A DNA stretch of 53,084 nt, filler included, from Stramenopiles sp. TOSAG23-3 (taxonomy: Eukaryota): NCBI GenBank assembly GCA_900128585.1. It is 4 parts of 4 records of this genome, joined end to end, with 100 filler letters (N's around TTAATTAATTAA, not from the genome) between each part and the next. Parts side by side here need not be neighbours in the genome. Positions count along the whole stretch, not along the records: positions 24,498 to 48,827 come from LT642305.1; 3 more parts are not named here. One strand, 5' to 3'. Every line of letters begins with the position of its first letter. Position 1 is the first letter of the stretch. Below, in pieces: positions 13,701 to 42,060 of the stretch. The notes below the pieces were generated by a model. The model saw only the letters and a list, made by a program, of their open reading frames with translations, ran no database searches and was not told the DNA's origin. The translations under genes were made by a program, and so were the position numbers.

Positions 13701-16187
13701 TAAAGCATCGAGCTGCTTAATTGTGTCGACAAGGTGAGGGACAAGCATTTTGGATAACCAAAGTAAATGAAAATTTAAGCATGCTTCCATAACAAAGGAA
13801 GGGAGAAGCTGCCGAATTATTGATTTTTGTAATGCAGCATCAAGGTCAACGCGCGACAGCTTTGCGCTCTTCGCAGTCTTTAAAATGACCTGGGCATGTT
13901 GACATAACAACTCCCCGTATATAATCGTGACTCGCGATGGAGCAGTGTACCTTGAGGATTCACGGCTGAACAAGGCCATGAGGTGCCTTTGATAATCCAT
14001 TAGGAGTTTCAACGCGCTATCTTGCAAATCTGTGCTCGGTTTCAGTGAGGCGCCTGTCAACAAGTCTACGGTTCCATCCACACTAAAATTGAACAGTGTG
14101 GCTAACGGACCAGCGTGCTTTCTGGCATCTTCTTCGGTACAAAATTTATTTGCCTGGGGGAGGCTGTTGACAATGCCACCCTTAAATCTCTTCAACATGT
14201 TCGCAATAAGCTGCTGTTTCCCAGGGCTAAGCTGGTCCAATTCTAGCTCTTCGTTATCCTTGAGTACTTGCGTCAATACGCTAACGCGCTTTGCTTCCGA
14301 GGAGTAAATACACTCGAATCCTTCCGAGAACGCACCGGCAGCTTTCAATTGAATACTTTTCGGCAGAGACGCGTCCGCGGTAATCCTTGAGAGAGTGTTC
14401 GCCAAATCCTGTAAACAGTTTGCTTCGAAACCAACGCTTGCTGGATTTACCATAGAAATTCTAATGCGTCGAAAAGATGCGTTCAACAGGGTCAAGATTT
14501 GCTCTTTAAAGGTATCCTGTTTAAATTTATCCTGAAAGCCACCGCTCGCTAAAGCCGGGTCTATCAAAAATTGGTTGCACAAATAAAACGTCTCAACACA
14601 ACCTTCAATGCAAAATGGTACCTCCAAGTCCAGGTCAGCAACTTGGAGATCATTTTCTAAAGGCCAGATATCAAAAAGCTCTGTAGTTTCACAGAGCATC
14701 GCCATGAGGTATTCAATCACTGTACATTCACTTTTATCCCCCTGTATCTCTGCTATCCTCAACTTTATTTCCGACCGTGGCTCCCGCCCCTTTGCACGTA
14801 CTTCATTCAGAACTGTAGAAGAGACCGTATCCCAGTGCCTGCGTATGTCCTTAAAAAAGCTGCTCCACGCACCATCTTCTTCGGTAACGGGTGTTTGGCT
14901 GTACAAAGGGTTTGTGCCGGACTTTATGCACGCTTTCACAAGGTGCAACACGGTGCAGAAAGAACCGCCTAATCTTACCAGCATCATCAGCGCTTTGATA
15001 GCATCTGAATTCGACTCTGTATTGCGGTTTGTGGAGCAGATTTCGCTAAGCCAAGTGTGAATGTCGCTGATTATGCGACGTCGGTTACTCGTGCAAGGGC
15101 GATCCGTACTGCCCCATAGTTGAAAATTGCAAATCCCAACTGGGAGATAATGCGTTTTTCGGTTTGGGTCAGCAGTATGCTTACATTCCAATTTCACATG
15201 CGTCAACATGTTCCCCTCCAAGGAAACGACAGTTTTTCTAGTTATGTACGGCTTTTGAAGTGTGTAGACGCGAAACCAAGACGTCCCATCCGAAGAAACC
15301 TGGACCGATATACTTTCAGGTAGCTCTGACGTAAAAAAGAACTCCATGCTTTTTATAGCAACCGGCTCGCTCCCTTTTACACGAACCACAACTTCGCTTT
15401 TGACCCGGTTGCGCGCGGGGACAAAAACCATTCCTGGCAATTCCTTTTGCGAAGCTTTCCATTTTCCAGGTACACATAAATGCAATGGCAAATTTTCGGA
15501 AATTTTCCCCGGCGCGGAATAAGGCAACACAATCGTTGAACGGTCGATGCCCGAAGACAGGGCCTGAACCGTGACCAGTTTTCGTTCACTGTCCATCGGA
15601 GGACTCCATTCAGAAAACAGAGAGAGCGCCCCTTTTTCCTCTGAGAATTTTTTCAACCAATTGCAAACGCTGCGCAGAGGCTTACGGTCGCAGTTACCCC
15701 CAGCGTGAATCTTCGTAAGGGAAGAAAGCATCCGCAAATTAAACTCAGAGAGTGGTTCAAGTGCAATTGTTGGCGCCGCTTTTCGGCGTGCTTTGTAACG
15801 TTTTGATTGATGTTGCCGTTCATCTTCAGTCAGATTCTGGAAATACTGAAGAATTTTTACACGCTTCAAAACGGTCCCTAAAAAGCTAGGAAGATTTCCT
15901 GAGCTGCACGTCAAGTCTTTCACGCACCTATTCAAGGCAGAATTTAGGCTTTCGTCTTCTTCTACCCCTGCCGCGACACACAGGCGCTCCTGAGATATTG
16001 CATTCTCCATAATAAGCCTCTCGTCCATAGAAATATCCACGTACGGCAGCTGAAACTTGATACGTTTGATCTCTGTTTCATGTTTTCTATAAATAAAGTC
16101 AACGACGTGCGCATCAAAAAGTCCAGAAGCATAGCTCTCCTTTGCAGACGCAAGCTCACCAACAGAAGACGAGCCGCTTTCTGCCAT
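4788..16187 (-). CDS. Giant HECT E3 ubiquitin ligase (3799 aa) with SPRY, PDZ-like, WW, IQ, UBA-like and RanBP2-type zinc finger domains
   Basis: C-terminal HECT (GEGLDYGGLYRD; FSWGRSRLP; catalytic LPIVHTCFFQVELPSYSS); SPRY ~13050-13440; PDZ-like ~12560-12845; WW (AWEELIDPDSQRSYFWNKATNVTQWDKP) ~12430-12520; IQ (VQSMYRRRQATR) ~10590-10650; ZnF (WACHKCTFLN...CLLC) ~8365-8442. Confidence 0.93.
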   Translation of the reverse strand: MAESGSSSVGELASAKESYASGLFDAHVVDFIYRKHETEIKRIKFQLPYVDISMDERLIMENAISQERLCVAAGVEEDESLNSALNRCVKDLTCSSGNLPSFLGTVLKRVKILQYFQNLTEDERQHQSKRYKARRKAAPTIALEPLSEFNLRMLSSLTKIHAGGNCDRKPLRSVCNWLKKFSEEKGALSLFSEWSPPMDSERKLVTVQALSSGIDRSTIVLPYSAPGKISENLPLHLCVPGKWKASQKELPGMVFVPARNRVKSEVVVRVKGSEPVAIKSMEFFFTSELPESISVQVSSDGTSWFRVYTLQKPYITRKTVVSLEGNMLTHVKLECKHTADPNRKTHYLPVGICNFQLWGSTDRPCTSNRRRIISDIHTWLSEICSTNRNTESNSDAIKALMMLVRLGGSFCTVLHLVKACIKSGTNPLYSQTPVTEEDGAWSSFFKDIRRHWDTVSSTVLNEVRAKGREPRSEIKLRIAEIQGDKSECTVIEYLMAMLCETTELFDIWPLENDLQVADLDLEVPFCIEGCVETFYLCNQFLIDPALASGGFQDKFKQDTFKEQILTLLNASFRRIRISMVNPASVGFEANCLQDLANTLSRITADASLPKSIQLKAAGAFSEGFECIYSSEAKRVSVLTQVLKDNEELELDQLSPGKQQLIANMLKRFKGGIVNSLPQANKFCTEEDARKHAGPLATLFNFSVDGTVDLLTGASLKPSTDLQDSALKLLMDYQRHLMALFSRESSRYTAPSRVTIIYGELLCQHAQVILKTAKSAKLSRVDLDAALQKSIIRQLLPSFVMEACLNFHLLWLSKMLVPHLVDTIKQLDALNVSLPHIKNAEKTFYTNNSSDIDKEHNPTEKFANGTSPPRFSTKLFKVEKSRPVDNTAKQFLDVIEDDHDILTTNDQQTVTSNTSGVVTVFSSSGVSHGLHAWEFNINSASIYIGVCHYISAVSYAGVEDQQSCWAVNVKDGSLWYGGQKVGQLDYEGKAGDIICMKLDTESGTLSYFANGVFLGNGFEGSTKVERVTNTENPIHLVVTMEDKGSEISVRGAGYSGGTACLPYLLDLEKTIVSCTSLFASSLVSGVPNTTLELEMDPWLASPLFSAGLKEHELNEQFSVEVHHTGELGIMFEESIMESQGEDFVAVVRGFRRVGSELNERSFLEKCGLVHPGHVLTKISSSVSVHSNFLSLNDVYRAIREASRPLKLFFSVPKLDLVSTSSKETGDSAWEELIDPDSQRSYFWNKATNVTQWDKPADTMLEDSVTTMLEKPGKFLLKVSSTNKILEWVNFQDKKGGMDRMIYKNKVLLKRLGAFPKMERKYLAAILWQSGLWALLRDHLNGKVFESDENSKDFKKNISEIAANVRIFRGWLRSQKSIDWSERSQIIAEEENAPVFTDEKSESAFKQRRSSNLSGTWSNLSDIFDEGIGAVETKEETRSFSAERKLSGSHVAETVGSDNYSTRAMVRAPRSFEELCRHVEERCSFILSLNSANFNDDLTPGLAGNLYANNVAQTLGLANTSMGVVSDEDIASDEQGKANEQKSPLQIACLAVSNYAQHGAIAAPTLVRLLINIRTARVLQRVEGLNYFADLIGNINISSAVVDCLLPLRRSLAGVFRTDSQSVSADIATPSSQIEYLSMTIKRKHHYMKNVDGCSTRAIGDLKKTFDFLFSLIVNVYKEQTNDGYSRNPALSQIVLDTLCLDYQSRDHKMLLSSGLLHHLRNTFSVVTRNRMSEAWFGRHSTSWNPEKSYSTKTAVELNDWKPWPPHIVRQALQSGYLTIREVICKIRETPREYLNPQFWESSNLLGSLSEAVSHHTISSVLEAYDRSLREAMESIWEDHLRLKKTEATKAAIMVQSMYRRRQATRRVEMMKQGEINASLRTGFSDYVLQGTGHEMRQLRRGAWAFFRFLATLLVGGVRDSEHSQIDSNMDQFSNTEAPSDEIIVSKSRRMSSKIFSLSAINDSIDLQKEIFDILESEFLISVDIFTRKDCKECEFVEAMEAESYVYSHLLFYTSVVRAKHIKIYLSKMEVLTAMCQLLFAGSPRIIGLTLGILKNILHCIDPLDMNKAFGQAGNRLQPGAMEMGMPTDKFDGNSFVSFLVWRSASIISHGSGLTCTHSIFDSIFKGIREAWSTGAGSGYVLARLSCECLSLLKEMTNWGKWTDTVRDFVYHILSRFSADGVLSVGSTYEDVEKSTLAGYAAVALGVMGGISDMLRIGGKVIVNGHENTEARTILYTRGMANALIVLKESVSAPPQLVPADSLIPTFDVLPKEGVFELKDGGDLAIKNKKIRRLSLMDGLISNKNINNQCHLLYLRSCAINALSFLLGHGPSAIVARDTKILSEMFAVALQPLDLSTFVTPERLSQRFRLLQEWGYEVMSKEGSSMLLKGESKVSLGNPREAKDHPSPVRENVQRDVMPRQSVEHLSLRTDIDNAVPSTRNVSQNVAKNRKVMDTAVDVWSMNETVYSLRLCIKAVKLTERNGEYDSHRASEWLKTEEAAKVKLTLSLEQTETSYEISNRWERASELSQVGASVKLCYHALELFGDDPVKAGDWLLMNGMPRYSKLDYYNASVENKPEDNDNPKSWACHKCTFLNEDLEAKECLLCTTPRKEEKVQKSPSAKPPFVKKNRFEGAWPGYEFKTGNEGLGYYLGSNYTSLPSENTAIPEGDAVVLSSINDEAEPLVLESSEENWAKGSKSIATKVMESLSTNESSIDDNSTTSDQVKLEHICTPVWKGMMLIVSDSIGHEKLVSGRLGVVVDVVTKKNKLRGGYKELESVKLEMLDQFTGVKTTRVYPVDRLKRPVQLFGGAMLGKFTVLNLLQSTADSLSSLFARKVILSTVLDLDQAFSVDDLGGPKNLVSLMKYVAATDDSFMEESLGKTKKMNNKSTLNKLRQRFIDILSAQALDDTLSSTQTLDDCLVSECIWNIRECTSPLSSNSDEENVVVRESLHPCWPRCTYTGEVSIDGAAAIRIEFDKEYTDEIWQHPQVELTFFTEKSCRVPIKKFNIRNAPRSFIIESKRVFYKFSSFYMDEKAISRNDSFRYKGFKFEASAVRGWGMWINEDQVTNIPSLNWALWLMAFLMGLDDAISAKIHEGELVGNLTEYLKTPSAPYKDRIVVLLTQLCQCPWLFDERPNLEIFDGVSEAVMARAEREHATHLFLPHSLPSLVELCMTINMTKLSFATNSNYKREPMNPKIDQGIPLDPPLELEEHRCMEYLSMLDRDTKPSREVIFADLINLVSCMSMNARLPDHLALCVFLHSRGNRYNTNTHRTRVERMVRSLSTWTPEMDAQLVHLLNNKMKRKGMNPLKCQPSELQISSAELRNYTKLQALNDLNIRQRFALLKLLNYFIDGLMAWIDFKNSAQPWSISAKLQKLSHTIFFVVKEKFLRSALDMTWGHEQGSGLKVCLDQLDSDKSERLGLSNPHKSKNLFIQLHSQLHAVSVFKLRSKLKTKNERGVQALFEVQYVLGEGLDYGGLYRDAMNTIVDQLFSKTFSLFILTPNGKSHDGLNQTNYLPNPQCTTRECIKMFETVGKIMGISLRTEGFFPFKFPLLVYKLLITDSISMSDVASIDHREESRPNENKFSMVDKIKRCPTEDSFEALPSTLCFEFLNCSGKKVPLFLGGEKKKVTWKNRSKYYHLYTQERVHEFDVQVDAIRRGLSCIVPFRALQYLTPSELEIAICGDADIDIDFWKAHTRYTGPGFSANSALAKRFWRVMGTLSHEQRVAFIKFSWGRSRLPSRNAREKWEFKLTTTNAKTSSLPIVHTCFFQVELPSYSSDSVMRTKIVTAIEYGLGAMMNK

Positions 16188-29592: not shown

Positions 29593-31372
29593 TGTTCTCA
29601 CCGTCAGTCAACAAACCGTTCTGCCCGTCGCCACAAATGCCAATAATATTTCCCTGGGCGGATATATATGGATATCAAACAAAATTCTATATTGTTTAAT
29701 CAGAACGGGGAAGCTTTGCAATCAGATGGACAACAAGTTGTTTCTCACAACCCGGTTCACTTCACTGCTTCATTCTGAACGCTATTTAAATTTGGAGTAA
29801 CGTTTGTAAAGTCGGAGTACTATATTATCTTTTTTTGTTCTAGTTGTTTTAGCTTTTATTTTTTAGCTCTTCCTATAATAATAATAATAATTAGATTGTG
29901 TTATTATTTTATTTTTTTGTACAGTATGATACAGTATGTTGCTTTGTTTTTTTGTAGTAAGTAAAATAATAAAATATTTTTTATTTTTTCATCATCATGC
30001 ATTTTGTTTTTTTTTCTTTTTTTTTTGAATAAGAGCTTATAGACCACAGACCACAGCTTTAAAATTTTGAGATTGTTGAATTCGTTAAAAAAAAAAGGGC
30101 TTCACTACACTTGTTATCAGAGAGAGAATACTATTTTTTGTACTTATATAACTCTTTATTCAAATCTTACTTCTTTGATGATGTGTGTGTGTAGTTCGTA
30201 GTTGTAATTGCCACCTAAAAATAACGACCTTCTTCTTCTTCTCGATTATTTATTATTATTTTTTCCCTTGAATGATTGCATTTGCCATCATCAGTTGACG
30301 ACAGCTGACAGCAGTCAATTGTGCCGCACTCACTCTCCACCCAATCGCTTGCTGTAGCTACAGTGCCGGTGTGCCGGTACGAAAAAAACACCAATTCCCT
30401 CCCTCCCTTCTCTTTCCATAGTCGTTTCTAGTTTAAATTATATGCTACAGGCTACAGCAGCAAAATTTCTCTCCCTCAATTGTTATTCCTATGCTGTATC
30501 ATCCTTTTTTCTTTCTAAATCTCTGGTACAATAAGGAAAAGATTATAAGGAAATCTGTATAGATTATGATATGATGATGTAAACAAATCTTCCTTAATCA
30601 TACGTATAGAAATGAACCAAACCAGTGAAATGTAGAATGTGTGGAGTATTTGGTACAGTACTGTGTAATGATAAGTATTTTTAGTGTACTATCAAGTATT
30701 TAAGTATTTAAAAGCAATGAGAATGAATAGTTCAATACAATATATACTGTCTGGTCGTATATTCTACGAGTATATATTCTTCTTCTTCTAAAAAATATAA
30801 TTATATCCTGCTGTGTAGTATTCTACGTATATTAGTAGTCATCTAAGATTTCTCTTCTTGTTTAGTCACCTCCCTCTTCAGCTTTCTTCTAAAAATTAAT
30901 TATAATATGTACGTAGTCGGCTAATAATTCTGTGTTCTGCAGGTGTTCGATGCTGTTTCCCCTCCTCCTCCGTCTCCGCGTCCATTCTTCTTCTTTTTTC
31001 TTCGAAACCACCCATAAATAATAAATAATAATAATAGACTAATAATAATTAATAATAAAAAATAAAATAAAATAATTAAAAAAAATACAATACTACTACC
31101 AAGTAGTATATTATAGTGGATACAGTAAGATATTGTAATAAAAAATTTAAAAAATAGGTTCGCGTTGCGATCAATACAAAACGAATAACTTCGACCTGAA
31201 CGAAACGTTTTTAATGAAATGATCAATTTGCATCCAGTTGATTGAGGGGTACGAGGACAAAGCAAGGTGAGTAGAAAGATTTAGATACTTGTTCTTCGGT
31301 GGACAGCGTTTTGCCCGTCCAAGAAGAAGCTTCCGTCCGACTGCGACGTGTTTGTGCGACTGCAGCTTCGAT

Positions 31373-34300
31373 ATGACGTACAACGGAACGTTCTGCAATT
31401 GTGACCCGGTCGTGTGCTGGGGGGGGAGATGTTTGGAACCAATGGGTAGCTCTGAAGGCCTGCAGTGCATTTATAACTACCGGTGCTTTCTTGAACAAGA
31501 CACCGGCGCAATATTGTGGACGGCCGTCTTGATTGGGGTTGGTTATCTTTTCTGCATGTTCATAGCGTTAAGGCTCCTTTACTTAGAGTGCACGACGTCG
31601 ACCAAGCGCCTGTTCGACCGCTGCGATGACTTCACCGTCACGATGATATCCTCCGCCCTCGCGAACATCATCAGAGGGCTCATCGTCGTCTTAAAAAAGG
31701 TGGATTACAAGGGAACTTCCCTAATAATTTTTGAAGCAGTTTGTGAGGCGTTTTACGTCACCATTGCCCTATACATTATACGGTTCAGTAGGAACATGAC
31801 GACCCATATCATCCGAGAGAAGACGTTTGCGATAAAGTGGCTGGGGAGAATACGGCGGTACAACGCTGGCATTGTCCTCTTGATATTTTTTCGGATGATT
31901 GCCCGGCTGGTGGCGCCCGAATCAGCTGCAGCGGACGCGTCGCTGCGGATTGCCTTGTCGGCAATCTTCACTTTCATTTTCGCACTTGCGTTCGTCATGG
32001 TGCGAGACACGCGAAAAACAATATCAAAAATGGTAGCCACGAGGAAGGAAGGAGATGACATCTTGAACAGAATCCACATGGTAAATAACTACATTGTGGG
32101 CATATTTTTGCTGTTCGTCCTCTGGGCGCTGTCCTGGATCATCCGCACGGGGCTCAACCTCCCTGGAGATCCGCGAGATACCGACGGCAAGCAAACGAGC
32201 ATAAAGGATCGCGATCCGATTGGTTGGAATTTAAGCAACCTTCCCAGCGAAATTTTTGAACTAGGGACTTTCTTTTGCATTACGTACGCTATTGCGTTCA
32301 TCAAAGACCAAAAGCGTGGTGGTCATCGACATACCCCAAAGCACGATGTCGCCAAGCCCACCTTGCACAAAAAGTCTAAGGCCAGGTCGGTGAAAAAGAT
32401 GTCAGACATGATCGTCCACGAGAACAAACTTCGCAAGGCGACGCAGAAACCGATAGTGAACACTCAGCGCTCGTCGATAGCAGAACCCGAGAGCTTGGCG
32501 CATTTGTCATCTTCGTTGGACATGAAAAAGGAGGAATTCTTGAAAACGATCCAGTTGTTTAATCAACTGCCAAGCCGACACTTTGAGCACATAGTGCAGA
32601 GCATCCAAACTCAAGATTTTGCCATGGGGCAAGTAATCGTGCACCAAGGGGACTCGAAGAACAATTGCATGTACATAGTAAAGACAGGGTCGGTTTGGTG
32701 TAGGATAAAAGAGACGAGGACAACCAGTGCCAGAAAACTATCCACTTCGGCGAGGAAAATTTCCGTCTCGGAAAGGTCGAGAAAATCGTCTGTCGGCGAT
32801 ATTGCCGATGCCGCTGGTGCGGTGGTTGCGAAGTTGGGAGCCGGGGATGTGTTTGGAGAGCAGTCCATCATGAAGAAACAGCCCCGAGCCGCTACCTGCA
32901 TTTCGATGAGCCCGGGCACTACTTGCTTCGTGCTATCTGGGGACGATTTCTCCACCGTCTTGTCGTCTGGTGTTGATACAGGAGGGCACGATGGAATCAA
33001 GCGCCGAAAATCCATTGCGATGAATGCGACCGCTGTGTGTTGGAGCTACCGTGGCGATAGCCTTGCGCTGGCTACGTACGCAAGCAATCTGCAGCACCTG
33101 TACAAAACAACGAGGGAAAGCCGGGCTGCGCAACAAAGGCAGAGCATTGCGGACACAGTAGCGACCCCAAGCTTTGCTTTCAACCCAGACGACACGGACC
33201 TGCAGTTTTCCCCGGTGTCCAAACGAGCCCCAGAGGTGGACATTGATGAGGTGCTGTTGGCTGCAGTAGAAGAAGAGGGCGAAGGGGAGGACGAGGTGCA
33301 ACAATTCAGAAGCAACGGTCTGTACACGTGTTCATGGGAAGAAATGTCCGGAAACCTAAGCACGGACAGGACTGTCCGACCGATGGGCCGGCAGACTAAG
33401 AGCAGCACCATCACGAAGTGGGTGGAGGATTCTGTAACCGTCAGAGGAGGTCTTGACAGTGTCGGTAACAAAAGGATGGCGGAAATAAGTGGAAAGTACC
33501 AGTTGGAGTTTCTGGGCTTGATCGGCCCGGAATTAACCGCTCGTGACATTTTGCAGCGCCTGATGTTGTACTTGAAAAAGGCGGTGGAATGTGACGACGT
33601 TACGATATCGTTGCCGTACTACAAAGATGGCACTCTCATGGCTACGGAATTTTCGACCTCGGATCCGACAACTGCCGTAGAGCGGCACTTCATAGGCATA
33701 AAACGGACAGTGGCGGTCTCGGAGCGGTTCGTATACGAAGGCACTGCCCTGTCGCACCCGGACTTTGATCCGAAAGACCCCACCATGCACAGTTCTGGTA
33801 CCCAAGCTGTCATTGCCCTCCCAGGGTTTTCAGACGGCTGTTTTCGAGCGGACCACTTGTTTTGCAACCTGTGGGACGGTGTGTCTCAAGTGGCCGAACA
33901 CGAAAAACAAAATAGCAAGGACTACTCGGATTTGACGGTGACAGAAAGCCCTAGGTACGTTGTCCAGCTTACCCGTGCAAGTGGGGCCTTCGCGCCCGTG
34001 GAAGTTGTGATCGTGGAGGCCCTCGTTCTGAGTGCTGCGACATCGTTAAAATATGACGAACTAATGGCGTGCACTCCAAACGAGGAAATCACGGAGTCTC
34101 ATCGGTCGGTTCGGGAGGCATTCCAAGTAAAACTTAACTACTTGGTAAATTGCGAAGATCTGTTCCAGCACGTGCATGGGGCTGGGACGCCGGGGAGGTG
34201 GTGCTGCAGTGGGAATTCAGAGTTTATTGTTCGTATGAATGTGTGGCCCTACACGGGCTCTGGGTGCACGGCAGACTCCCCTTCTTTGCTCGGTGCGGGG

Positions 34301-36532
34301 AACAAAACCCTTTTTCAAACTCCGCGGTTGACCGTGGAAGCAAAAATGCTTACTGATGGGGATGGGGGAAGCTTTTCTGCGCTAGAAATCGATTGTTGGA
34401 TCAACGCGCTCCGGAACATTGCGGACATCCCTCTGTCATCGTTCGTTACGTTTGAGATCGTTTCCAACTATGAATTTGATGCCCTTGCGTGGTGCGGGTG
34501 CTTTCTGTACGATTACGAAAAACGGTTTATCAGCGGTCAGATGGAGCTGCCTCTGACGCTTGGGGCATTGCCTGGAAAGATCTTTCCGTCGATGCTGAGC
34601 TCTCCAACGCAGCAAGATCTTGACGACCCCGAATTGGCGAAACAGAAAATGCTGGTAGTACAGTTTGAAGAAAAGGAAGCAATCACAGTATACACTGAGC
34701 CATGGAGCTCGTGCTTGTCGCACACGAAGCATCAGCATTTGCGGGCTGGTGCCGATGCCGAAGAGTCGCCCGAGGCAAGGATGCCTACAAAGTTTGAAAA
34801 AATCGTCAGCATCGACACTTTGCTGGCAGAGTGCTGCCTCAATCCCGACTTGTCGGAAAAATCTGCGCAACTAATTCGAAGGCACGTTGGTGAGCTGAAG
34901 ATGATCCCAAGGGCCCTACCTCTCATTGTCAAAGCTGTCGATCCCACGGCAAAGAATGCGATTCGAACAATGCACAAGACCATTAGGCGCTGGGGTCCGA
35001 TCAGTATCGATACCGCCCTTGTTCTGCTGACTTCGAATGACCCTGTTGTCCGTGCATTTGCAGTCGAACGGTTGGACGATATGTTGGATAATAGAAACAT
35101 GTGCATGTACATGCTCCAACTGACACAAGCGTTGAAGTTGGAAGTATGCCATGACTCTGCCCTGGCCCGATTCTTGCTGCGAAGGTCAATACAGCGTCCT
35201 ACTGTGGTGGGGCACTCTCTCTACTGGGGCTTGCAGGCCGAAATGCACAGGGCCGAAGCCACTGAACGCTACGGGCTTCTGATCAGTATATTTTTGCGCC
35301 ATTGCGGGGACTACCGCAACGGTATCGGCCACCAATGTTTCTTTATGCAAAAACTGAACAGTGCGCAAAAGGAAATAAAAGCCATACCATCTAAAAAGGC
35401 GCAAAAGAAGAGGATAGGTGGAGTCCTTGAGGAGCTGGGTACTGTTCTGCCCGACGCCTTCAAGCTCCCCCTTCGTGGGAACGTAGTTATTGCCAGCATT
35501 ATACCGGAAAAATGCAGGGTAATGAGCTCGAAGATGAAACCAATATGGCTGACGTGCAGGACGAGGGTTCCAAAAGATCAGACGTATAAAGTTTTGTTTA
35601 AGGCCGGCGATGACCTGCGGCAGGACCAACTCACGCTTCAGCTGCTGTCTATTATGGACACGCTGTGGAAAGAGGAAAACTTGGACCTGATGATGTCCCC
35701 ATATGGCTGCGTGGCCACTGGCGACGAAGTTGGGCTGATTGAAATTGTCCCCAATGCCAACACAGTGGCGGCGGTACTGGCATGCATGGGAGACGAGTCT
35801 CGAGAGCGTCCGAAAGAGGTGAAGCTCATCGACGCGGCGATGGGGACGACCATGGAAACCAAATTTTCTGTCAGGCGGTGGCTGTATTTGAAAGAAAATC
35901 CTGGGATGGAAGACCCGGCCTTGTCCAGTAACAACCAAATAATTACTTCCGTGATGGACGACATCGAACAGCGGGCCCTCCTGGAGGAAATGTATCCACT
36001 CTCTGAAGGCGCACAGAATAGGTTTATGCGCTCGTGCGCGGGCTACTGCGTTGCGACCTATGTTCTAGGGATTGGGGATCGCCACCCATCGAACTTAATG
36101 GTCACTAGCGATGGGCGTTTTCTTCACATCGATTTCGGCCACTTTTTAGGGAACTTTAAAACTAAGTTTGGGTACAAACGAGAAACTGCCCCCTTCGTGT
36201 TTGTGCCCCAGTTTGCAGCGGTTTTTGGGGGCGAATATACGGAGGGAAACCCGAATCCGAAGTATGTGGAATTTGAAGAAATATGCTGCAAAGCGTTCAA
36301 TATTCTTCGATCGAAGTTCACACTAATTTCCTCGCTGTTTGCCCTTATGATATCGTCCGGGTTGCCAGAATTGCGTGGGTTCAACGATTTGAAGTGGCTC
36401 CACGACAAGATGTGCCCCGAGAAGAGTGATTTAGAAGCGAGCACGATAATGAAGAAATGCATTGAAGAAAGTTTGAACAACGAAAGGACACAAATGAACA
36501 TATTTGCACACCTACAGAAGCACTATTCTTGA
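31373..36532 (+). CDS. 7TM (GPCR-like)-cNMP-binding-GAF-like-C2-helical-phosphoinositide 3-kinase fusion protein
   Basis: Seven hydrophobic helices ~31505-32302; cNMP domain (GQVIVHQGD...MYIVKTG...FGEQSIMKKQPRAAT) ~32530-32962; GAF-like ~33530-34050; PIK helical (VRAFAVERL, LQLTQALKLE, GHSLYWGLQAE); kinase (SKMKPIW, FKAGDDLRQDQL, GIGDRHPSN, HIDFGHFLGN, KRETAPF). The frame is open from about 31289; first ATG is 31373. Confidence 0.9.
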   Translation: MTYNGTFCNCDPVVCWGGRCLEPMGSSEGLQCIYNYRCFLEQDTGAILWTAVLIGVGYLFCMFIALRLLYLECTTSTKRLFDRCDDFTVTMISSALANIIRGLIVVLKKVDYKGTSLIIFEAVCEAFYVTIALYIIRFSRNMTTHIIREKTFAIKWLGRIRRYNAGIVLLIFFRMIARLVAPESAAADASLRIALSAIFTFIFALAFVMVRDTRKTISKMVATRKEGDDILNRIHMVNNYIVGIFLLFVLWALSWIIRTGLNLPGDPRDTDGKQTSIKDRDPIGWNLSNLPSEIFELGTFFCITYAIAFIKDQKRGGHRHTPKHDVAKPTLHKKSKARSVKKMSDMIVHENKLRKATQKPIVNTQRSSIAEPESLAHLSSSLDMKKEEFLKTIQLFNQLPSRHFEHIVQSIQTQDFAMGQVIVHQGDSKNNCMYIVKTGSVWCRIKETRTTSARKLSTSARKISVSERSRKSSVGDIADAAGAVVAKLGAGDVFGEQSIMKKQPRAATCISMSPGTTCFVLSGDDFSTVLSSGVDTGGHDGIKRRKSIAMNATAVCWSYRGDSLALATYASNLQHLYKTTRESRAAQQRQSIADTVATPSFAFNPDDTDLQFSPVSKRAPEVDIDEVLLAAVEEEGEGEDEVQQFRSNGLYTCSWEEMSGNLSTDRTVRPMGRQTKSSTITKWVEDSVTVRGGLDSVGNKRMAEISGKYQLEFLGLIGPELTARDILQRLMLYLKKAVECDDVTISLPYYKDGTLMATEFSTSDPTTAVERHFIGIKRTVAVSERFVYEGTALSHPDFDPKDPTMHSSGTQAVIALPGFSDGCFRADHLFCNLWDGVSQVAEHEKQNSKDYSDLTVTESPRYVVQLTRASGAFAPVEVVIVEALVLSAATSLKYDELMACTPNEEITESHRSVREAFQVKLNYLVNCEDLFQHVHGAGTPGRWCCSGNSEFIVRMNVWPYTGSGCTADSPSLLGAGNKTLFQTPRLTVEAKMLTDGDGGSFSALEIDCWINALRNIADIPLSSFVTFEIVSNYEFDALAWCGCFLYDYEKRFISGQMELPLTLGALPGKIFPSMLSSPTQQDLDDPELAKQKMLVVQFEEKEAITVYTEPWSSCLSHTKHQHLRAGADAEESPEARMPTKFEKIVSIDTLLAECCLNPDLSEKSAQLIRRHVGELKMIPRALPLIVKAVDPTAKNAIRTMHKTIRRWGPISIDTALVLLTSNDPVVRAFAVERLDDMLDNRNMCMYMLQLTQALKLEVCHDSALARFLLRRSIQRPTVVGHSLYWGLQAEMHRAEATERYGLLISIFLRHCGDYRNGIGHQCFFMQKLNSAQKEIKAIPSKKAQKKRIGGVLEELGTVLPDAFKLPLRGNVVIASIIPEKCRVMSSKMKPIWLTCRTRVPKDQTYKVLFKAGDDLRQDQLTLQLLSIMDTLWKEENLDLMMSPYGCVATGDEVGLIEIVPNANTVAAVLACMGDESRERPKEVKLIDAAMGTTMETKFSVRRWLYLKENPGMEDPALSSNNQIITSVMDDIEQRALLEEMYPLSEGAQNRFMRSCAGYCVATYVLGIGDRHPSNLMVTSDGRFLHIDFGHFLGNFKTKFGYKRETAPFVFVPQFAAVFGGEYTEGNPNPKYVEFEEICCKAFNILRSKFTLISSLFALMISSGLPELRGFNDLKWLHDKMCPEKSDLEASTIMKKCIEESLNNERTQMNIFAHLQKHYS

Positions 36533-37065
36533 ACTTTCGGTTTGTGTCCCCGGATCCATCAGCTAGAAATGCAGCATGTCCTGTGTGAAAAAATATAAAC
36601 TACTTCGTACGAGAGTAACATTTTATTAATTTATCTATAACTATATAATTTGTGTTTTTTTACTAATTTATCTCATTGAATCATTTTAATTTTAGCTTTT
36701 TTTTTAAAAACTAATTCAGATTATCTAGTTATAACATAAAATATTTTCATTTGATTGTAAACCTGAGAACAATTTTATAATATTCTTTTTAAAAAAAGAC
36801 ACAACTGTTACTTTTTAAATATTAACGTAAATTTAACGAAAGAAAACAAACCAAATAGAGATACACTGGAATTTTCCTCTACCGTGAGGCGCAGCCTGCA
36901 ACGCGATTGTTTCTTAATTTGTCCTTCGAAGTTGTCTGTTTGCGTGCTCCCTCTCGTTTTGATATTTTACCCATGCATATATCTACTTCGTACTAACGGC
37001 AACACTTCGTGAGACCCCGGAAGGTTGCCAGCGAGCCCTTCCTCCGTAGCGATCTGCTTCCGGGA

Positions 37066-37455
37066 CTACTCGCACAGCCAGGCGATTGCTTCCTTTGAAC
37101 CATTCTCATCGCCAAATACTGCAAGCAAGTACAACTCTAAAGCGGCACGCCTTCTTTCCAAAAACTCGCCAGAAATTGACCCGTGGGGACTGCACGTTTT
37201 CGGGGGCAGTTGTATGGACGTGCACAACCTCTGCTGCCTCAAACGCTTGCTTAATTGAACAAACTGACTATAACGCTTTTCTACTATCTTCTTCTCATTC
37301 CCAAATTTTATCAAAATATGGTACATTGCAATGCCACTTTGGGTGTCTACTAAGTGAATACTAGCGGTAAAATGGTCTGGCCCAAAACGGGGACTCCAGG
37401 AGTCTTCCGGAAAATATATAGAGCAAGGTAAGGATAGAGACAGATTGGCAGACAT
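37066..37455 (-). CDS. Small PX (phox homology) domain protein
   Basis: YHILIK...VEKRYSQFVQL...LPPK...FLERRRAALELYL matches the PX signature (R/K)RYSxF...LPPK...ERR..LE.YL. Confidence 0.85.
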   Translation of the reverse strand: MSANLSLSLPCSIYFPEDSWSPRFGPDHFTASIHLVDTQSGIAMYHILIKFGNEKKIVEKRYSQFVQLSKRLRQQRLCTSIQLPPKTCSPHGSISGEFLERRRAALELYLLAVFGDENGSKEAIAWLCE

Positions 37456-38436
37456 GTTTGTTGCGTTAACTCTATTTTTTTTCTACAAAGTTCGGATGTT
37501 TCTAAAGTAAACCTGAGGTGAAATCTTCCAATAATTACAAACGTTCCCGGAAAAGAATTCTGGGGCCATTTTCGTAGAAAAAAACGAAAAAAGAACAACA
37601 ACGAAGGAAGTCCTGACGACGACGGAAGAAGAGCACCCGCCCGTACCGGTATTTATACAACAAAAAAGGAAAGAAGAAGAAGAAGAAAAAAAAGAAAGAA
37701 GAAAGAAGTAGAAGAAGTTTTTTTTTATTTTTTGTTATTTATTACTTCTTTCTACGTCATACAGTACTGTTATGTTATTTTTATTTTTTTTAATTATTCT
37801 ATTGTGTACTCACATCATTGGGGAAGATATTTTTATTGTATTATTATTTTAATTATAAGTACGAGTAGAGCTAATTTATTAGGAATGAGAAAAAACAGTT
37901 AAAATCACGTTTACAGAAGGAATCCAATCGTTTCTAGTTGCTGTATTTTATTATAGCCAATAATACAATGTTTTATAGTTATAATTGTTTTATAATTCCC
38001 TATGTGAATATGTTTTCCAGCTCGTAAAAGAATGAGGTTCACATTCCTTCTTTATTTATTGATTCATTTAAAAAAGGGGGGGGGATGTCACAATAAGAAG
38101 GACAATAAGAAGATAATAAGGAATTTTTTAAATATATATAAATAGTATTGTAAATTTACTTATAATGATATCGATGTAGCTCTACCTTCGTATTCTCATA
38201 GTTAATTTTAATTTATTATACTTATGTACGCACAGCGATATAATGACATCTAATTGTCACACCCGTTCAAGGAATCGTTTATGCAACAACGGACTAAGTG
38301 AGTGTGTGTGTGTCAGAGGGACGGAACTATTTAGATTTCTCAAAAATTACGCACTGTTTAATTGAAAGAATCAGAAATTAGATCACGTTTTATTTTGTTC
38401 CAATTTGGATTCCTGTGGCTGGTTTGATACAAAAAG

Positions 38437-41400
38437 ATGAATCGTTCTACGTGTGCATATTTGCTTCTCATCCTTCTGGTTGTTGGTGAAGTTGCAAATG
38501 TTCAGGGTACCATTCAACGAAATCTTAATGCTCGCCGGCAAGAGCGATTGAACCGAGCGAACCATGGCGACAAAGACGCGGAAGATAAGGATGACCAAGA
38601 CGACCCTAAGGGTTCCTTTTTGACCGATTCGATCAAGAAATACAAATGCGACAAAACCAAGATCAAGCAAGTAATGCATGACGCCGGGAAGAAAGGGTTT
38701 AGGATCTCGATCAAGGAATTGTTGGCCCAGTTTCAGACTTGCACGAAGGAGAAAGAAAAGGCCAAGGAAAAAGACCAAGGTTCCAAAGAAGACCGGGAGC
38801 AGAACAAGGAAGTCGAGGAGCCGGTGGTCCCACTAAAGCGCTTGTTCTCCGACAATTTTGACAGCTGGAACAAAAACAATTGGGAAGAAGCCGAAGGTTT
38901 GTACGGCAGAATCGTCAAAGGTATCAACGGGAAAGGTGAAAAGGGCAGCATGCTTATGGACGGTAACGGAAAGGACGGCAAAACCCTGAAAGATGACGGC
39001 GTTCGTATGTTAACGTCAAAGATGTTCGATGCCAGGGCCGGGGGAACGGTACAATTCCAGCTGCGTTCGTTCGGTACAAAAGGCGAGGGCACGTGCTACA
39101 CGGATTACACCAAGATGAAAAAAGAAGAGCAAGACAAAAAGCGAGCCATCGAACAAGAGCAAAAGAAGAAGGCAGAGCAAGCGGCAAAGAAAGCTGCGGA
39201 ACAGACTGCGAAAGCGAAAAAGGCAGAAGCGGAGAAAAAGAAAAAAGATGAAGAGAAGAACAAGCTTGAGGCGAAGCGCATGGAAGAAGTTAAGGCCCGA
39301 AAGCAATGCCTAAGCTCGCCGCCCTGCAACGGGCACGGGCGCGGTGTGTACAAATCGAAATGCAACGAAAAGACCTGGGAGTGCACCAGCCGCCAGTGCA
39401 CGTGCAACTGCATCGGCAATTGGTACGGGCAAAGGTGCGACAAGTACATGGGAACCTCCCAGTGCCAGAGCGTTGGGGACCCACACCCTCTGTCGTTAGA
39501 CGGCCTGCGCTTTAATATCTACGATGCCGGAGAGTTTTTAATGTTCAAGCACCCAGAGCACCCCGTCGAAATTCACGAACTTACCCGCATGGCGCGACCG
39601 CATATTGCCGCGACTGCCGGTGTCGCGATGAGGACCGAAGGAACTACCATCTCGATCGAACAGCCCCACTGTGGCAACAGGAACAACTTTCAAGTTCGCG
39701 CGATCGAGAACGGAGTCTGCCGCAACATTGGGTGGGGAAGAAGGTACTCTCGGCAAGGCCTGACGTACGATGGTGGAAGGCACATTTATGGTCCACGGGG
39801 AACTGACATTTACCTAGGAGGCTGGTGGCGTTACAATTGGTGGAGGGGGCAATGCGGCTCTGCGTACTGGCTGAACATCTATGTACGCATCAAGGCCCCA
39901 CGAGACGGGAAAGCCGAGGGAATATGCGGGACATTCCGTGGTAACCGCAACACCGACGAACAAACATTGATCCAGAGTTCCGGCAAAAGGCACCACCACC
40001 AAATTTCAAGAAGCACCCGAAACAAGTGGATGATTAAGCCCGAAGATTCCTTCTTCATCTGCGGTGCGTGGAAGCCTTCGTTTCGATACTCGCCGTCGTT
40101 TAAATCTTTAAAGGCTGGTCAAAGTCTGCGAGCTGCCACGCAAGCGGCTGCCATGGTGGACGCGGAGGCCACTGTCGCCCGCGAGTTTGCTAGAGACCGC
40201 GCCCTTAACGCTGCCAACGACAAGGCCGATGCAAAGGGTGATGACGAGAAGACGCCGTTGAGCCAAGCCAAAGCGTTGGCAATCTGCAAAAAGAAGCCCG
40301 GAATCGATACAGAAGAAGCGCTTACGAACTGTGTCAATGACATGTCCATGACTAATGATAAGAAAACTGCGGACGTCGCCAAAGCCGAGAGTGAGGAAGA
40401 AGCGGAAGAAGCGGTGAACGAAGTCAAAGAAGACGAGAAAGAGGAAGAAATCGAAATGGCCGCGGAAGCGAAGATGAAAGTTGCGGAATCAATGGACCTG
40501 GTCATGCAGTACTGTGGCAAAGATTGCCACAACGAGAAGAACTGGAAGCAGCTGAAAGCTTACCCCCAAAAGGTTTACGGAGACTTTCTGAACGAGTGGC
40601 GAACCATGACTGCCCGTTTGCCCGACGATGCGAAAACTGCCGGGCTTCGCTTGAGGTTCTTCCAGAAAGAGCACACGTGCTACTGTTGCGAGGCGTACGC
40701 CATCGATAATGTAGAGGTCACTTCGGGTGGAATGAATGTTGCCATCGTTGCGGACAAAAAGTTTGAACTGTTTGCGGATGGAAAAACGGTTGGGCAAGGC
40801 GAATGGTGGGAGCCAGCCAAAGACACGTACCGCTTCAAGGTACCAGACAACACGAGAACCTTCGCCGTCAAACTTAACGGGGGGAACGATGCAAAGATGG
40901 GCCTCATTGGTATGTTCGGAGAAAAGCTTGTGACTAGTTCCAGTTGGAAATGCTCCGCAGTGCTAGACGAGAAGGATGCTGACACGTGGATGAAGCCCAG
41001 CTACGATGACAGTGACTGGGGCAGTGCCGTTGAAGAGGGCCGAAACGGTATCCTACCTTGGGGGGAACGCCCTGGCATTGCAAAGCAAGCGTACTGGATC
41101 TTTACGCACGAAGTGTACAGGATGCGTGGGCAAAATGCGTACTGCCGCGTCAACGTGAAAGATGCTGCTCACAGTCACGCGCGTACCCACGAGGCAAGTC
41201 GTTGGTCTTGCAAGGCTGGGAAGAACCGCCTTTCGCCAGCTGCCGTTCAACTGTCCTCCAAGGTAGTTGCTGCCGTCGAGGTTCGCGGTGGAAAGGAAGC
41301 AACGGAGCACTTCTCGCCCGGGACGTCTTTCACCACCAAGGTTGAAGATGACGACGAGGTTCGTGTGTTGATGAAAATCAAGACAAAGAATTTGTTTGAC

Positions 41401-42060
41401 AAAACCGTCGAGGGCGCGACCATAAAGAGGGCACTGCTGCGTGTGTTGGTGTCCGATGAAACTGAAAATGAACTGCTTGTATGTAAACTCATTCGGAAGT
41501 GGTCCGCCGCTGATGTAACGTGGAACGACCAACCGGCATACGATGGCCCAAAAGATAAGTGCATATCCGTCAAAGCCCTGAAAAAGAACGAGTGGATGAG
41601 CATCGACCTCTCCGACTGGATGAGAGAGTGGGTTAGTAACCCAGAAACTAATTTTGGGATTGTATTCGTCCCAACAGGAAAGGATGCGGCCTCGTTCGTG
41701 TCCTACTTAGACCCAGATGCGAACCAACGTCCTCGATTGTCCATGTCTTGCCATGGTGACAGAACCGATTCTAGCCACGTCTTTAAAGCAGTCATGGGGA
41801 AACTAGAGACAGCACCAAGGGGCGCGGAACCGACTGCGACCGGGGCTGAAGCTGCGACCGGGACAGGGGCTGAAGCTGCGACTGGTCCACGACAGGTGGT
41901 TCACGTAGCGCTTCCATGCGACAAACCAAACGGGTGCCCGAAAGAAGACGAAAAGAAGCCAGAACCGTACCAAAGAATGAATGATAAAATCACAATGGTC
42001 AAGGCCTCCGAGGCCGCCACCGGTGCCAGTACAGGGGCCGCTACTGGCGCATCTTTCTAA
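38437..42060 (+). CDS. Secreted mosaic protein: split reelin-like domain, coiled coil, EGF, VWD, lectin-like beta-sandwich, DNRLRE/CBM96-like domain and ATG repeats
   Basis: Signal peptide (AYLLLILLVVGEVANVQG); EGF CNGHG...CTCNCIGNWYGQRC; VWD CQSVGDPH..SLDG...GEF...EGICGTFRGN; reelin-like FSDNFD.../LPDDAKTAGLRLRFFQ...AIDNVEV; SSSWKC...YDDSDW...PWG; VTWNDQP...DWMREWV..NFGI...RPRL. Confidence 0.8.
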   Translation: MNRSTCAYLLLILLVVGEVANVQGTIQRNLNARRQERLNRANHGDKDAEDKDDQDDPKGSFLTDSIKKYKCDKTKIKQVMHDAGKKGFRISIKELLAQFQTCTKEKEKAKEKDQGSKEDREQNKEVEEPVVPLKRLFSDNFDSWNKNNWEEAEGLYGRIVKGINGKGEKGSMLMDGNGKDGKTLKDDGVRMLTSKMFDARAGGTVQFQLRSFGTKGEGTCYTDYTKMKKEEQDKKRAIEQEQKKKAEQAAKKAAEQTAKAKKAEAEKKKKDEEKNKLEAKRMEEVKARKQCLSSPPCNGHGRGVYKSKCNEKTWECTSRQCTCNCIGNWYGQRCDKYMGTSQCQSVGDPHPLSLDGLRFNIYDAGEFLMFKHPEHPVEIHELTRMARPHIAATAGVAMRTEGTTISIEQPHCGNRNNFQVRAIENGVCRNIGWGRRYSRQGLTYDGGRHIYGPRGTDIYLGGWWRYNWWRGQCGSAYWLNIYVRIKAPRDGKAEGICGTFRGNRNTDEQTLIQSSGKRHHHQISRSTRNKWMIKPEDSFFICGAWKPSFRYSPSFKSLKAGQSLRAATQAAAMVDAEATVAREFARDRALNAANDKADAKGDDEKTPLSQAKALAICKKKPGIDTEEALTNCVNDMSMTNDKKTADVAKAESEEEAEEAVNEVKEDEKEEEIEMAAEAKMKVAESMDLVMQYCGKDCHNEKNWKQLKAYPQKVYGDFLNEWRTMTARLPDDAKTAGLRLRFFQKEHTCYCCEAYAIDNVEVTSGGMNVAIVADKKFELFADGKTVGQGEWWEPAKDTYRFKVPDNTRTFAVKLNGGNDAKMGLIGMFGEKLVTSSSWKCSAVLDEKDADTWMKPSYDDSDWGSAVEEGRNGILPWGERPGIAKQAYWIFTHEVYRMRGQNAYCRVNVKDAAHSHARTHEASRWSCKAGKNRLSPAAVQLSSKVVAAVEVRGGKEATEHFSPGTSFTTKVEDDDEVRVLMKIKTKNLFDKTVEGATIKRALLRVLVSDETENELLVCKLIRKWSAADVTWNDQPAYDGPKDKCISVKALKKNEWMSIDLSDWMREWVSNPETNFGIVFVPTGKDAASFVSYLDPDANQRPRLSMSCHGDRTDSSHVFKAVMGKLETAPRGAEPTATGAEAATGTGAEAATGPRQVVHVALPCDKPNGCPKEDEKKPEPYQRMNDKITMVKASEAATGASTGAATGASF

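Follow-up and report, generated by a model that had tools for sequence, protein, structure and literature searches.

The 7TM-PI3K gene

The window, by which is meant the whole stretch of DNA analysed (53,084 nucleotides, filler included, in four joined parts, from Stramenopiles sp. TOSAG23-3, assembly GCA_900128585.1), contains at positions 31373..36532 of the + strand (within record LT642305.1) a gene for a phosphoinositide 3-kinase (PI3K) that begins with a predicted seven-transmembrane (7TM) bundle and carries a cyclic-nucleotide-binding (cNMP) domain and a diverged GAF domain ahead of its C2, helical and kinase domains. According to the list of open reading frames (ORFs) and the translation, the product has 1719 amino acids (aa) followed by a stop codon, without interruption and without an intron; the frame begins to be open at 31289 and ends with the stop codon at 36530-36532, and its first ATG is at 31373. 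The features of the gene are as follows.

31373..36532, +: whole coding sequence (ORF list and translation; collinear orthologues P0003 and P0173; contigs of RNA libraries)
31373..31507 (aa 1-45), +: Cys-rich N-terminal segment, predicted extracellular (Cys count, positive-inside count)
31508..32320 (aa 46-316), +: seven-transmembrane bundle, with a predicted fold like that of G-protein-coupled receptors (GPCRs) (hydropathy, AlphaFold2 (AF2) model, VIA-align)
32321..32512 (aa 317-380), +: basic, poorly conserved linker after the seventh transmembrane helix (TM7) (12 Lys and Arg in aa 311-350; orthologues 19% and 14% identical)
32513..32977 (aa 381-535), +: cyclic-nucleotide-binding domain with an insert rich in Ser, Arg and Lys (PF00027)
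32978..33112 (aa 536-580), +: conserved stretch that follows the cNMP domain (orthologues 64% and 56% identical, more than in the flanking linkers)
33473..34063 (aa 701-897), +: diverged GAF domain (top Pfam match, hhalign, BLASTP, position in relatives)
34214..34762 (approximately aa 948-1130, start inferred), +: PI3K-type C2 domain (PF00792 in P0003, alignment to p110alpha)
34847..35317 (aa 1159-1315), +: PIK helical domain (PF00613, E 1.6e-29)
35585..36376 (aa 1405-1668), +: PI3/PI4-kinase catalytic domain (PF00454, E 1.4e-54)

The 7TM-PI3K gene is real, transcribed and intron-free, and it encodes a polytopic membrane protein; an open frame of 5.2 kb, collinear orthologues and RNA cover confined to the ORF together place it beyond chance. 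Word-indexed searches returned a protein 100% identical to that of the window (P0002), whose cluster includes full-length members of 1658-1720 aa from independent assemblies in ENA, JGI and EukProt records, and a collinear orthologue with 52% identity (P0003). A profile search added a second orthologue of equal architecture (P0173, 1814 aa, 46% identity over its full length), of which a near-identical copy is encoded as a single 1814-aa ORF by a separate metagenome contig (L001), the only locus returned by a scan of metagenomes with the 7TM profile. Across the window protein and these two orthologues the domains are conserved whereas the linkers have diverged, with identities to P0003 and P0173, respectively, of 55% and 34% in the 7TM bundle, 52% and 48% in the cNMP domain, 46% and 35% in the GAF-like domain, 50% and 41% in C2, 72% and 60% in the helical domain and 72% and 62% in the kinase domain, versus 19% and 14% in the linker between TM7 and the cNMP domain.

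The gene stretch is present in 20 public runs, six of which are recorded as RNA, and because the 12 marine or aquatic studies to which these runs belong include both metagenomes and metatranscriptomes, the gene comes from a widespread marine protist, is expressed, and is no isolated case. Contig cover was examined over positions 30500-37500 in three RNA libraries and one DNA run, with no joints reported: the RNA contigs are confined to approximately 31274-36613, and the DNA run covers both flanks too. The boundary between the 7TM bundle and the cNMP domain is bridged by RNA contigs at 31861-32530 and 32523-33131, that between the cNMP and GAF domains by a contig at 32725-33501, and that between GAF and C2 by a contig that runs from within the GAF domain to the end of the kinase domain (33609-36613). 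Individual runs such as X20 lack a contig over some stretches of the ORF, gaps to which no meaning is attached. The original prediction, made from the sequence of the window, described one uninterrupted frame and one gene, and the orthologues, independent assemblies and RNA contigs give no sign of two genes or of misassembly. In the independent DNA run X4, the contigs break with loose ends at 30798-31124, which is intergenic and upstream of the gene, probably owing to strain variation; the coding region agrees.

N-terminus and seven-helix module

The first 50 residues include six Cys and an NGT sequon, and C10, C32 and C38 are invariant across the three orthologues (the window protein, P0003 and P0173). 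Seven Kyte-Doolittle peaks follow within aa 51-310, and the AF2 model of this part (mean predicted local distance difference test score (pLDDT) 65.9, predicted TM-score (pTM) 0.62) has seven helices (46-75, 86-107, 115-147, 160-180, 185-221, 228-261 and 290-316). Comparison of the model with 48,161 representative structures by VIA-align yielded 50 listed rows, every one a GPCR entry from class A, B or C (Z 16.6-19.0, root-mean-square deviation 3.5-5.9 Å, 224-274 residues aligned), the reference level being approximately 14 for helical models without clear kin. Foldseek returned weak matches, nearly all of them to GPCRs, and the weak neighbours by language model include the 7TM families of GPR137, TOM1 and PRRT3 (scores of 0.83-0.85, below the tool's level of 0.9), which may be taken as a lead only. 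Five charged residues within the hydrophobic cores (R101, E121, E125, R174 and R178) are invariant in the three orthologues. The fold of the 7TM bundle as modelled is thus GPCR-like, and the bundle is a domain under its own constraint. A Cys-rich N-terminus and seven hydrophobic helices had been recognised from the outset, and the count of six Cys, seven hydropathy peaks and seven modelled helices bears them out; fewer than about six helices without a GPCR-like fold would have counted against the prediction, and the model has seven, in a fold predicted to be GPCR-like.

Lys and Arg are concentrated in the segments assigned to the inside (3, 8, 7 and 12, a total of 30) relative to those assigned to the outside (2, 3, 0 and 5, a total of 10). 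Because the number of helices is odd and the positive-inside pattern is of this sense, the Cys-rich N-terminus is predicted to be outside the cytosol, with the sensor and catalytic domains and the C-terminus on the cytosolic side. A rhodopsin-type light sensor was considered and rejected, there being no microbial rhodopsin among the 50 rows listed by VIA-align, and the sole conserved Lys near TM7 (K311) being located at the cytosolic end.

When aa 1-1000 were searched exhaustively by phmmer, the only matches to the 7TM bundle were the orthologues, short fragments of the same family and one further protein from outside the window (P0024, 835 aa). This protein has a Cys-rich N-terminus with an equal Cys pattern and a 7TM part (42% identical to aa 4-329 of the window protein); next come an XK-related-like membrane stretch (PF09815, E 1e-6) and, after it, ankyrin repeats. 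Since P0024 combines the 7TM module with a different C-terminal part, the module has evidently been shuffled between outputs.

Cyclic-nucleotide and GAF sensors

The cNMP-binding domain named in the original prediction scores above the gathering threshold of PF00027 (E 3.2e-12 to 6.2e-14, the match being split into two stretches; 46.7-52.2 bits versus 27.5). The motif FGE...PRAAT can be read in it, of which F494, G495, E496, P504, R505, A506 and A507 are invariant in the three orthologues. The barrel of the domain contains an insert rich in Ser, Arg and Lys (window positions 32708-32827, approximately aa 446-485) with sites that resemble those of basophilic kinases (RKLS, RKIS and RKSS); the insert varies in length among the orthologues, and a longer one occupies the equal position in the related PI3K P0188. 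In the conserved segment that follows the domain (aa 536-580), the DSLALAT and NL..LY columns are invariant in the orthologues.

The middle domain is, by homology and position, a diverged GAF domain related to bona fide GAF domains. GAF is its top and only plausible Pfam match, in two of four family members, and its neighbours by language model are GAF clusters (score 0.94). By hhalign, the middle domain of the window family aligns with the GAF domain of P0212 (E 0.0014, residues 510-620 versus the Pfam GAF at 525-659), and by BLASTP it is collinear with the GAF domain of P0188 (E 0.021); relatives carry PF01590 above threshold at the equal position. A profile of the region compared with solved structures gave as its best match the N-terminal region of 4mcw_A, which is not significant (E 0.76), and an AF2 model of aa 631-1020 was too poor for use (pLDDT 40.8). 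The earlier assignment of a GAF-like domain thus stands as to homology and position relative to the GAF domains of relatives, but the domain of the window protein itself is below the Pfam threshold.

PI3K core

With the N-terminal 900 residues occupied by the 7TM, cNMP and GAF parts, approximately 50 residues separate the end of the GAF domain (approximately aa 897) from the inferred start of C2 (approximately aa 948). The C2 domain was located by PF00792 at the aligned position in P0003 (E 1.6e-5, 25.3 bits versus a cut-off of 26.4) and by a profile alignment to p110alpha that starts within it; aa 880-1180 alone matched nothing among solved structures by phmmer at E up to 1. The catalytic motifs GDDLRQD (at 1412), GDRH (at 1568) and DFG (at 1587) are invariant in the three orthologues. 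The closest solved relatives of the kinase are p110alpha (E 1.8e-98), then p110gamma and p110beta, the three together spanning E 1e-98 to 1e-91, and a profile of the orthologues matched p110alpha at E 6e-122. The profile alignment sets the activation loop, which has several Lys and Arg residues, against that of p110alpha, FGYKRE being identical. Pfam matches, the p110alpha alignment and the invariant motifs thus agree with the C2, helical and intact kinase domains of the original prediction, in the order that it gave, and the likeness that it saw to a class I activation loop extends to identity in FGYKRE. It had also set the protein against canonical PI3Ks, which are recruited via adaptor- and Ras-binding domains: Pfam scans of the window protein and P0003 found no Ras-binding domain (PF00794, at E up to 10) and no adaptor-binding domain (PF02192). 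The product is probably a 3-phosphoinositide; the likeness of the activation loop to that of p110alpha makes PI(3,4,5)P3 a plausible one.

The cNMP-GAF-PI3K subfamily

A query with the kinase region (aa 1130-1719) had 3001 matches, of which the best 120 were tabulated. Among these 120, 45 have a cNMP-binding domain (31 of them with a GAF-family domain as well), five have GAF without cNMP, 42 have a Ras-binding domain (RBD) instead, and 28 have neither. The members with names are from Triparma strigata, Cafeteria roenbergensis, Hondaea fermentalgiana and a thraustochytrid transcriptome, all of them stramenopiles. When 16 relatives were rescanned, the order cNMP, GAF, C2, helical, kinase was found wherever GAF scored (9 of 16), with GAF E-values down to 1e-18 and C2 starting approximately 45-50 residues after GAF, a spacing like that of the window protein. 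Because the relatives share this order, it is a trait of the family and not a peculiarity of the window gene; judged by these domain matches, the cNMP-GAF-C2-helical-kinase core belongs to a large, widespread and mostly soluble subfamily of PI3Ks. The original prediction had taken the cNMP and GAF sensors between receptor and kinase for the oddity of the protein, which is contradicted by the counts above; the rarity is the 7TM module. A hydropathy screen (two or more N-terminal TM-like segments at a threshold of 1.6) found the whole 7TM bundle in only three of the 120 best matches: P0002, P0003 and P0173.

Trees were computed from approximately 610 residues around the catalytic loop, by FastTree with 72 of the 120 rows (the 48 left out being 12 with cNMP, 20 with RBD and 16 without either) and as a quick tree by IQ-TREE with 33 rows. 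The RBD-bearing PI3Ks are split from a clade of all cNMP- and GAF-bearing rows (support of 100 in FastTree and 99 in IQ-TREE), and the 7TM trio forms a clade nested inside the latter (99 and 100), with P0183 as its sister (100 and 99), followed by P0190 and P0101. With rooting on the RBD group, which was chosen, neither tree having a true outgroup, the 7TM proteins are a derived clade within the cNMP-GAF-PI3K subfamily, and in this clade the 7TM bundle was added N-terminally.

Three further observations concern individual relatives. The sister protein P0183 (2310 aa) has two to three weaker hydrophobic segments near its N-terminus; by BLASTP it matches TM5-TM7 of the window protein weakly and collinearly (E 0.02), and an hhalign comparison with the 7TM profile gave a match limited to the start of the cNMP domain. 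P0183 may be a diverged or truncated fourth transmembrane form. PI3Ks of oomycetes (P0216, P0235, P0248 and others, from Phytophthora, Pythium and Albugo), for which no accessory Pfam domain is recorded, nest inside the cNMP/GAF clade, which suggests that their sensor domains were lost or have diverged past detection. P0280 (1528 aa), counted here among the 45 cNMP-bearing matches and not among the 42 with RBD, combines a cNMP-binding domain at aa 112-189 with, at aa 674-761, the Ras-binding domain of PI3Ks, and may represent an intermediate architecture.

Other genes of the window

The window consists of eukaryotic nuclear DNA, in which the genes are long and lack introns; besides the PI3K, they encode a HECT ligase, an aldo-keto reductase, an FGGY kinase, a CH/IQ protein, a Bax-inhibitor protein, a protein kinase and a DHX29-like helicase. 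The HECT ligase is a giant E3 ubiquitin ligase encoded by an intron-free ORF of 3799 aa (4788-16187, - strand), in which SPRY and WW domains accompany a HECT domain at the C-terminus. The PI3K gene is closely followed downstream by an ORF of 1207 aa (38437-42060, + strand) that combines a reelin subrepeat-B with a CBM96 carbohydrate-binding module.

Possible mechanism and alternatives

In textbooks, control of PI3Ks is a matter of recruitment, by adaptors, Ras and G-beta-gamma. A membrane-integral PI3K, and a large subfamily with cNMP and GAF domains in place of the Ras-binding domain, point instead to allosteric gating by small molecules. It appears fairly probable that the protein is a membrane-resident PI3K gated allosterically by cyclic nucleotide, with the 7TM bundle adding ligand input or membrane targeting. 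The kinase would be held permanently at its lipid substrate in the membrane, so that recruitment, the usual control of class I PI3Ks, would not be usable. In the subfamily, the adaptor- and Ras-binding domains of class I are replaced by cNMP and GAF domains ahead of the C2-helical-kinase core. Binding of cAMP or cGMP to the cNMP domain would relieve autoinhibition of the kinase, a second small ligand or dimerisation through the GAF domain would possibly contribute to gating, and the 7TM bundle would provide either a conformational input that depends on ligand or targeting to a particular membrane. A bolder version is more doubtful: that this is the first fusion of a GPCR-fold receptor with a PI3K, in which coincidence of an external ligand with cAMP or cGMP, detected by a single polypeptide, might gate the synthesis of PI(3,4,5)P3 (PIP3) without G protein, Ras or adaptor, in a stramenopile-centred lineage of PI3Ks under cyclic-nucleotide control. 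The original prediction, in which an external ligand would act without a G-protein or adaptor relay, suggested prey sensing or phagocytosis as possible roles. If gating of this kind is true, the protein adds a seventh output type to the class of GPCR-bigrams described below, cyclic-nucleotide and 3-phosphoinositide signalling are directly linked by a wiring between the two second-messenger systems that has so far been undescribed, and cNMP-gated PIP3 synthesis offers cell biology a compact natural switch as a tool.

Several points count against an allosterically gated receptor-PI3K. The 7TM model, with its pLDDT of 65.9, is of moderate confidence and derives from a 14-row alignment of mostly fragments; Foldseek gave one match at E <= 1e-3, TM-scores lay at 0.4-0.55, and the match at rank 13 is to an adiponectin receptor. 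Neither the window protein nor the 14 aligned members matched a GPCR family or any other Pfam family in the 7TM part at E up to 10, the DRY and NPxxY motifs were not seen there, and the LRxGI motif of GPCRs joined to phosphatidylinositol phosphate kinases (GPCR-PIPKs) is not present. The Glu and Arg of the FGE...PRAAT motif may be those of a phosphate-binding cassette, a reading made from the sequence by the consensus of such cassettes and not by a tool. In the window protein, PF01590 reaches E 0.06 and 14.3 bits, below the threshold of 22.4, and a cNMP-binding motif of the NKFDE type was not seen in its GAF domain. The evidence of transcription consists of assembled contigs from RNA libraries, which can contain DNA, and the ORF in its full length is not contained in any one RNA contig.

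The last of these points would also fit a long frame produced by artefact, with two neighbouring genes joined through misassembly or the chance lack of a stop codon, and the gene calls in databases are automatic and partly prokaryote-style (that of P0003 has a false upstream extension). Such an artefact is nevertheless very improbable, given a fusion that is collinear in three lineages at 46-56% identity (in one of them on the separate metagenome contig L001), full-length copies in several independent assemblies, and RNA contigs that bridge each domain boundary and end at the ends of the ORF. For the enzyme itself, it is rather unlikely that the product is PI3P or PI(3,4)P2, or that the protein is mainly a protein kinase, with a role in membrane trafficking and not in PIP3 signalling. 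The Ras- and adaptor-binding domains that define class I are indeed missing, and the clade lies apart from the RBD-bearing PI3Ks, but the closest solved relatives are the class I enzymes p110alpha, gamma and beta, and the activation loop combines several Lys and Arg residues with the FGYKRE of p110alpha. Class II PI3Ks have a PX-C2 tail, which the window protein, ending just past its kinase domain, does not.

Two other alternatives concern the 7TM bundle. It may be a mere membrane anchor or sorting signal (endolysosomal or phagosomal, for example) that binds no ligand, leaving all regulation to the cNMP and GAF domains, a possibility to be held in mind although we doubt it. This would be consistent with the scarcity of the bundle (two or more N-terminal hydrophobic segments in three of the 120 best matches, most members of the subfamily having no transmembrane segment), with the lack of a match to any ligand-binding GPCR family, and with a tiny ectodomain of approximately 45 aa. 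Seven helices, however, are superfluous for a plain anchor, and an anchor would not call for the invariant buried charges R101, E121, E125, R174 and R178 and the conserved Cys pattern outside, for conservation equal to that of GAF and C2, or for recurrence of the module with another output in P0024. Less likely still is a conventional GPCR with its own effector, which would activate heterotrimeric G proteins so that G-beta-gamma or cAMP switches on the tethered PI3K. The GPCR-like predicted fold and the basic intracellular loops 2 and 3 (eight and seven Lys and Arg) would suit it, and it is among the models proposed for GPCR-bigrams (PMC6033456), in which case the cNMP domain could close the loop; against it, the bundle has no recognisable coupling motifs, DRY and NPxxY being those looked for, and no membership in a GPCR sequence family.

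Comparison with known systems

The closest counterparts described so far are the GPCR-bigrams, which van den Hoogen and Govers (PMC6033456) define as single proteins that unite a 7TM receptor-like domain with a catalytic accessory one. Six output types are distinguished in the accessible parts of two papers (PMC6033456, PMC5784254), namely phosphatidylinositol phosphate kinase (PIPK), inositol polyphosphate phosphatase (INPP), adenylyl cyclase (AC), phosphodiesterase (PDE), tyrosine kinase-like (TKL) and aspartic protease (AP), with no PI3K among them. For the type IV kinases of ciliates, the accessible part of the source describes transmembrane PIPKs only (PMC3823935), and that of a paper on PI3K evolution does not mention GAF, cNMP or transmembrane forms (PMC4617754). 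The text of a preprint on choanoflagellate GPCRs does not mention PI3K. As to whether the architecture had already been characterised, no paper on a GPCR-PI3K fusion, a transmembrane PI3K or a cNMP-GAF-PI3K was found in the openly accessible literature, of which supplementary tables could list such proteins; the cNMP-GAF-PI3K subfamily is apparently undescribed.

The window protein, with its predicted 7TM bundle and a catalytic domain in one polypeptide, falls within the definition of a GPCR-bigram, but its PI3K output and the absence of LRxGI place it in none of the six described types. Like the known GPCR-bigrams (Dictyostelium RpkA, the oomycete GPCR-PIPK, -INPP, -AC, -PDE and -TKL proteins, and the ciliate type IV PIPKs), it has an N-terminal seven-helix module and a C-terminal cytosolic signalling enzyme; unlike them, it has cNMP and GAF domains between receptor and enzyme. 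It shares with the GPCR-PIPKs a phosphoinositide kinase as output, and the logic proposed for those proteins, in the parts of the sources that are accessible, is a direct coupling of sensing to lipid signalling (PMC6033456, PMC5784254, PMC3823935). It differs from them in that its enzyme is a PI3K and not a PIPK of the PIP5K type, and in its lack of LRxGI and of a Pfam family for the 7TM bundle.

Class I PI3Ks (p110alpha, beta and gamma) resemble the window protein in the C2-helical-kinase core, the catalytic motifs and the activation loop. Unlike them, it has no adaptor- or Ras-binding domain, is predicted to be integral to the membrane instead of recruited to it, carries cNMP and GAF domains and belongs to a separate clade. 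Other close counterparts are the soluble cNMP-GAF-PI3Ks (database entries such as Triparma strigata TrST_g4028, Cafeteria roenbergensis FNF27_03089 and the 'Phosphatidylinositol 3-kinase 3' of Hondaea fermentalgiana), with which it shares domain order and clade, a kinase region that is 40-47% identical and, in P0188, the insert in the cNMP barrel. These proteins have no 7TM bundle, many having a WW domain or long uncharacterised N-terminal regions instead, and their GAF domains pass the Pfam threshold whereas that of the window protein is below it.

Among enzymes in general, a cyclic-nucleotide-binding domain, a GAF domain or both act as an allosteric switch N-terminal to the catalytic domain in PKA, PKG and Epac, in the GAF-regulated phosphodiesterases and in cyanobacterial cyclases. 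The window protein has its sensors in the same N-terminal position, but the enzyme that they would control is a lipid kinase.

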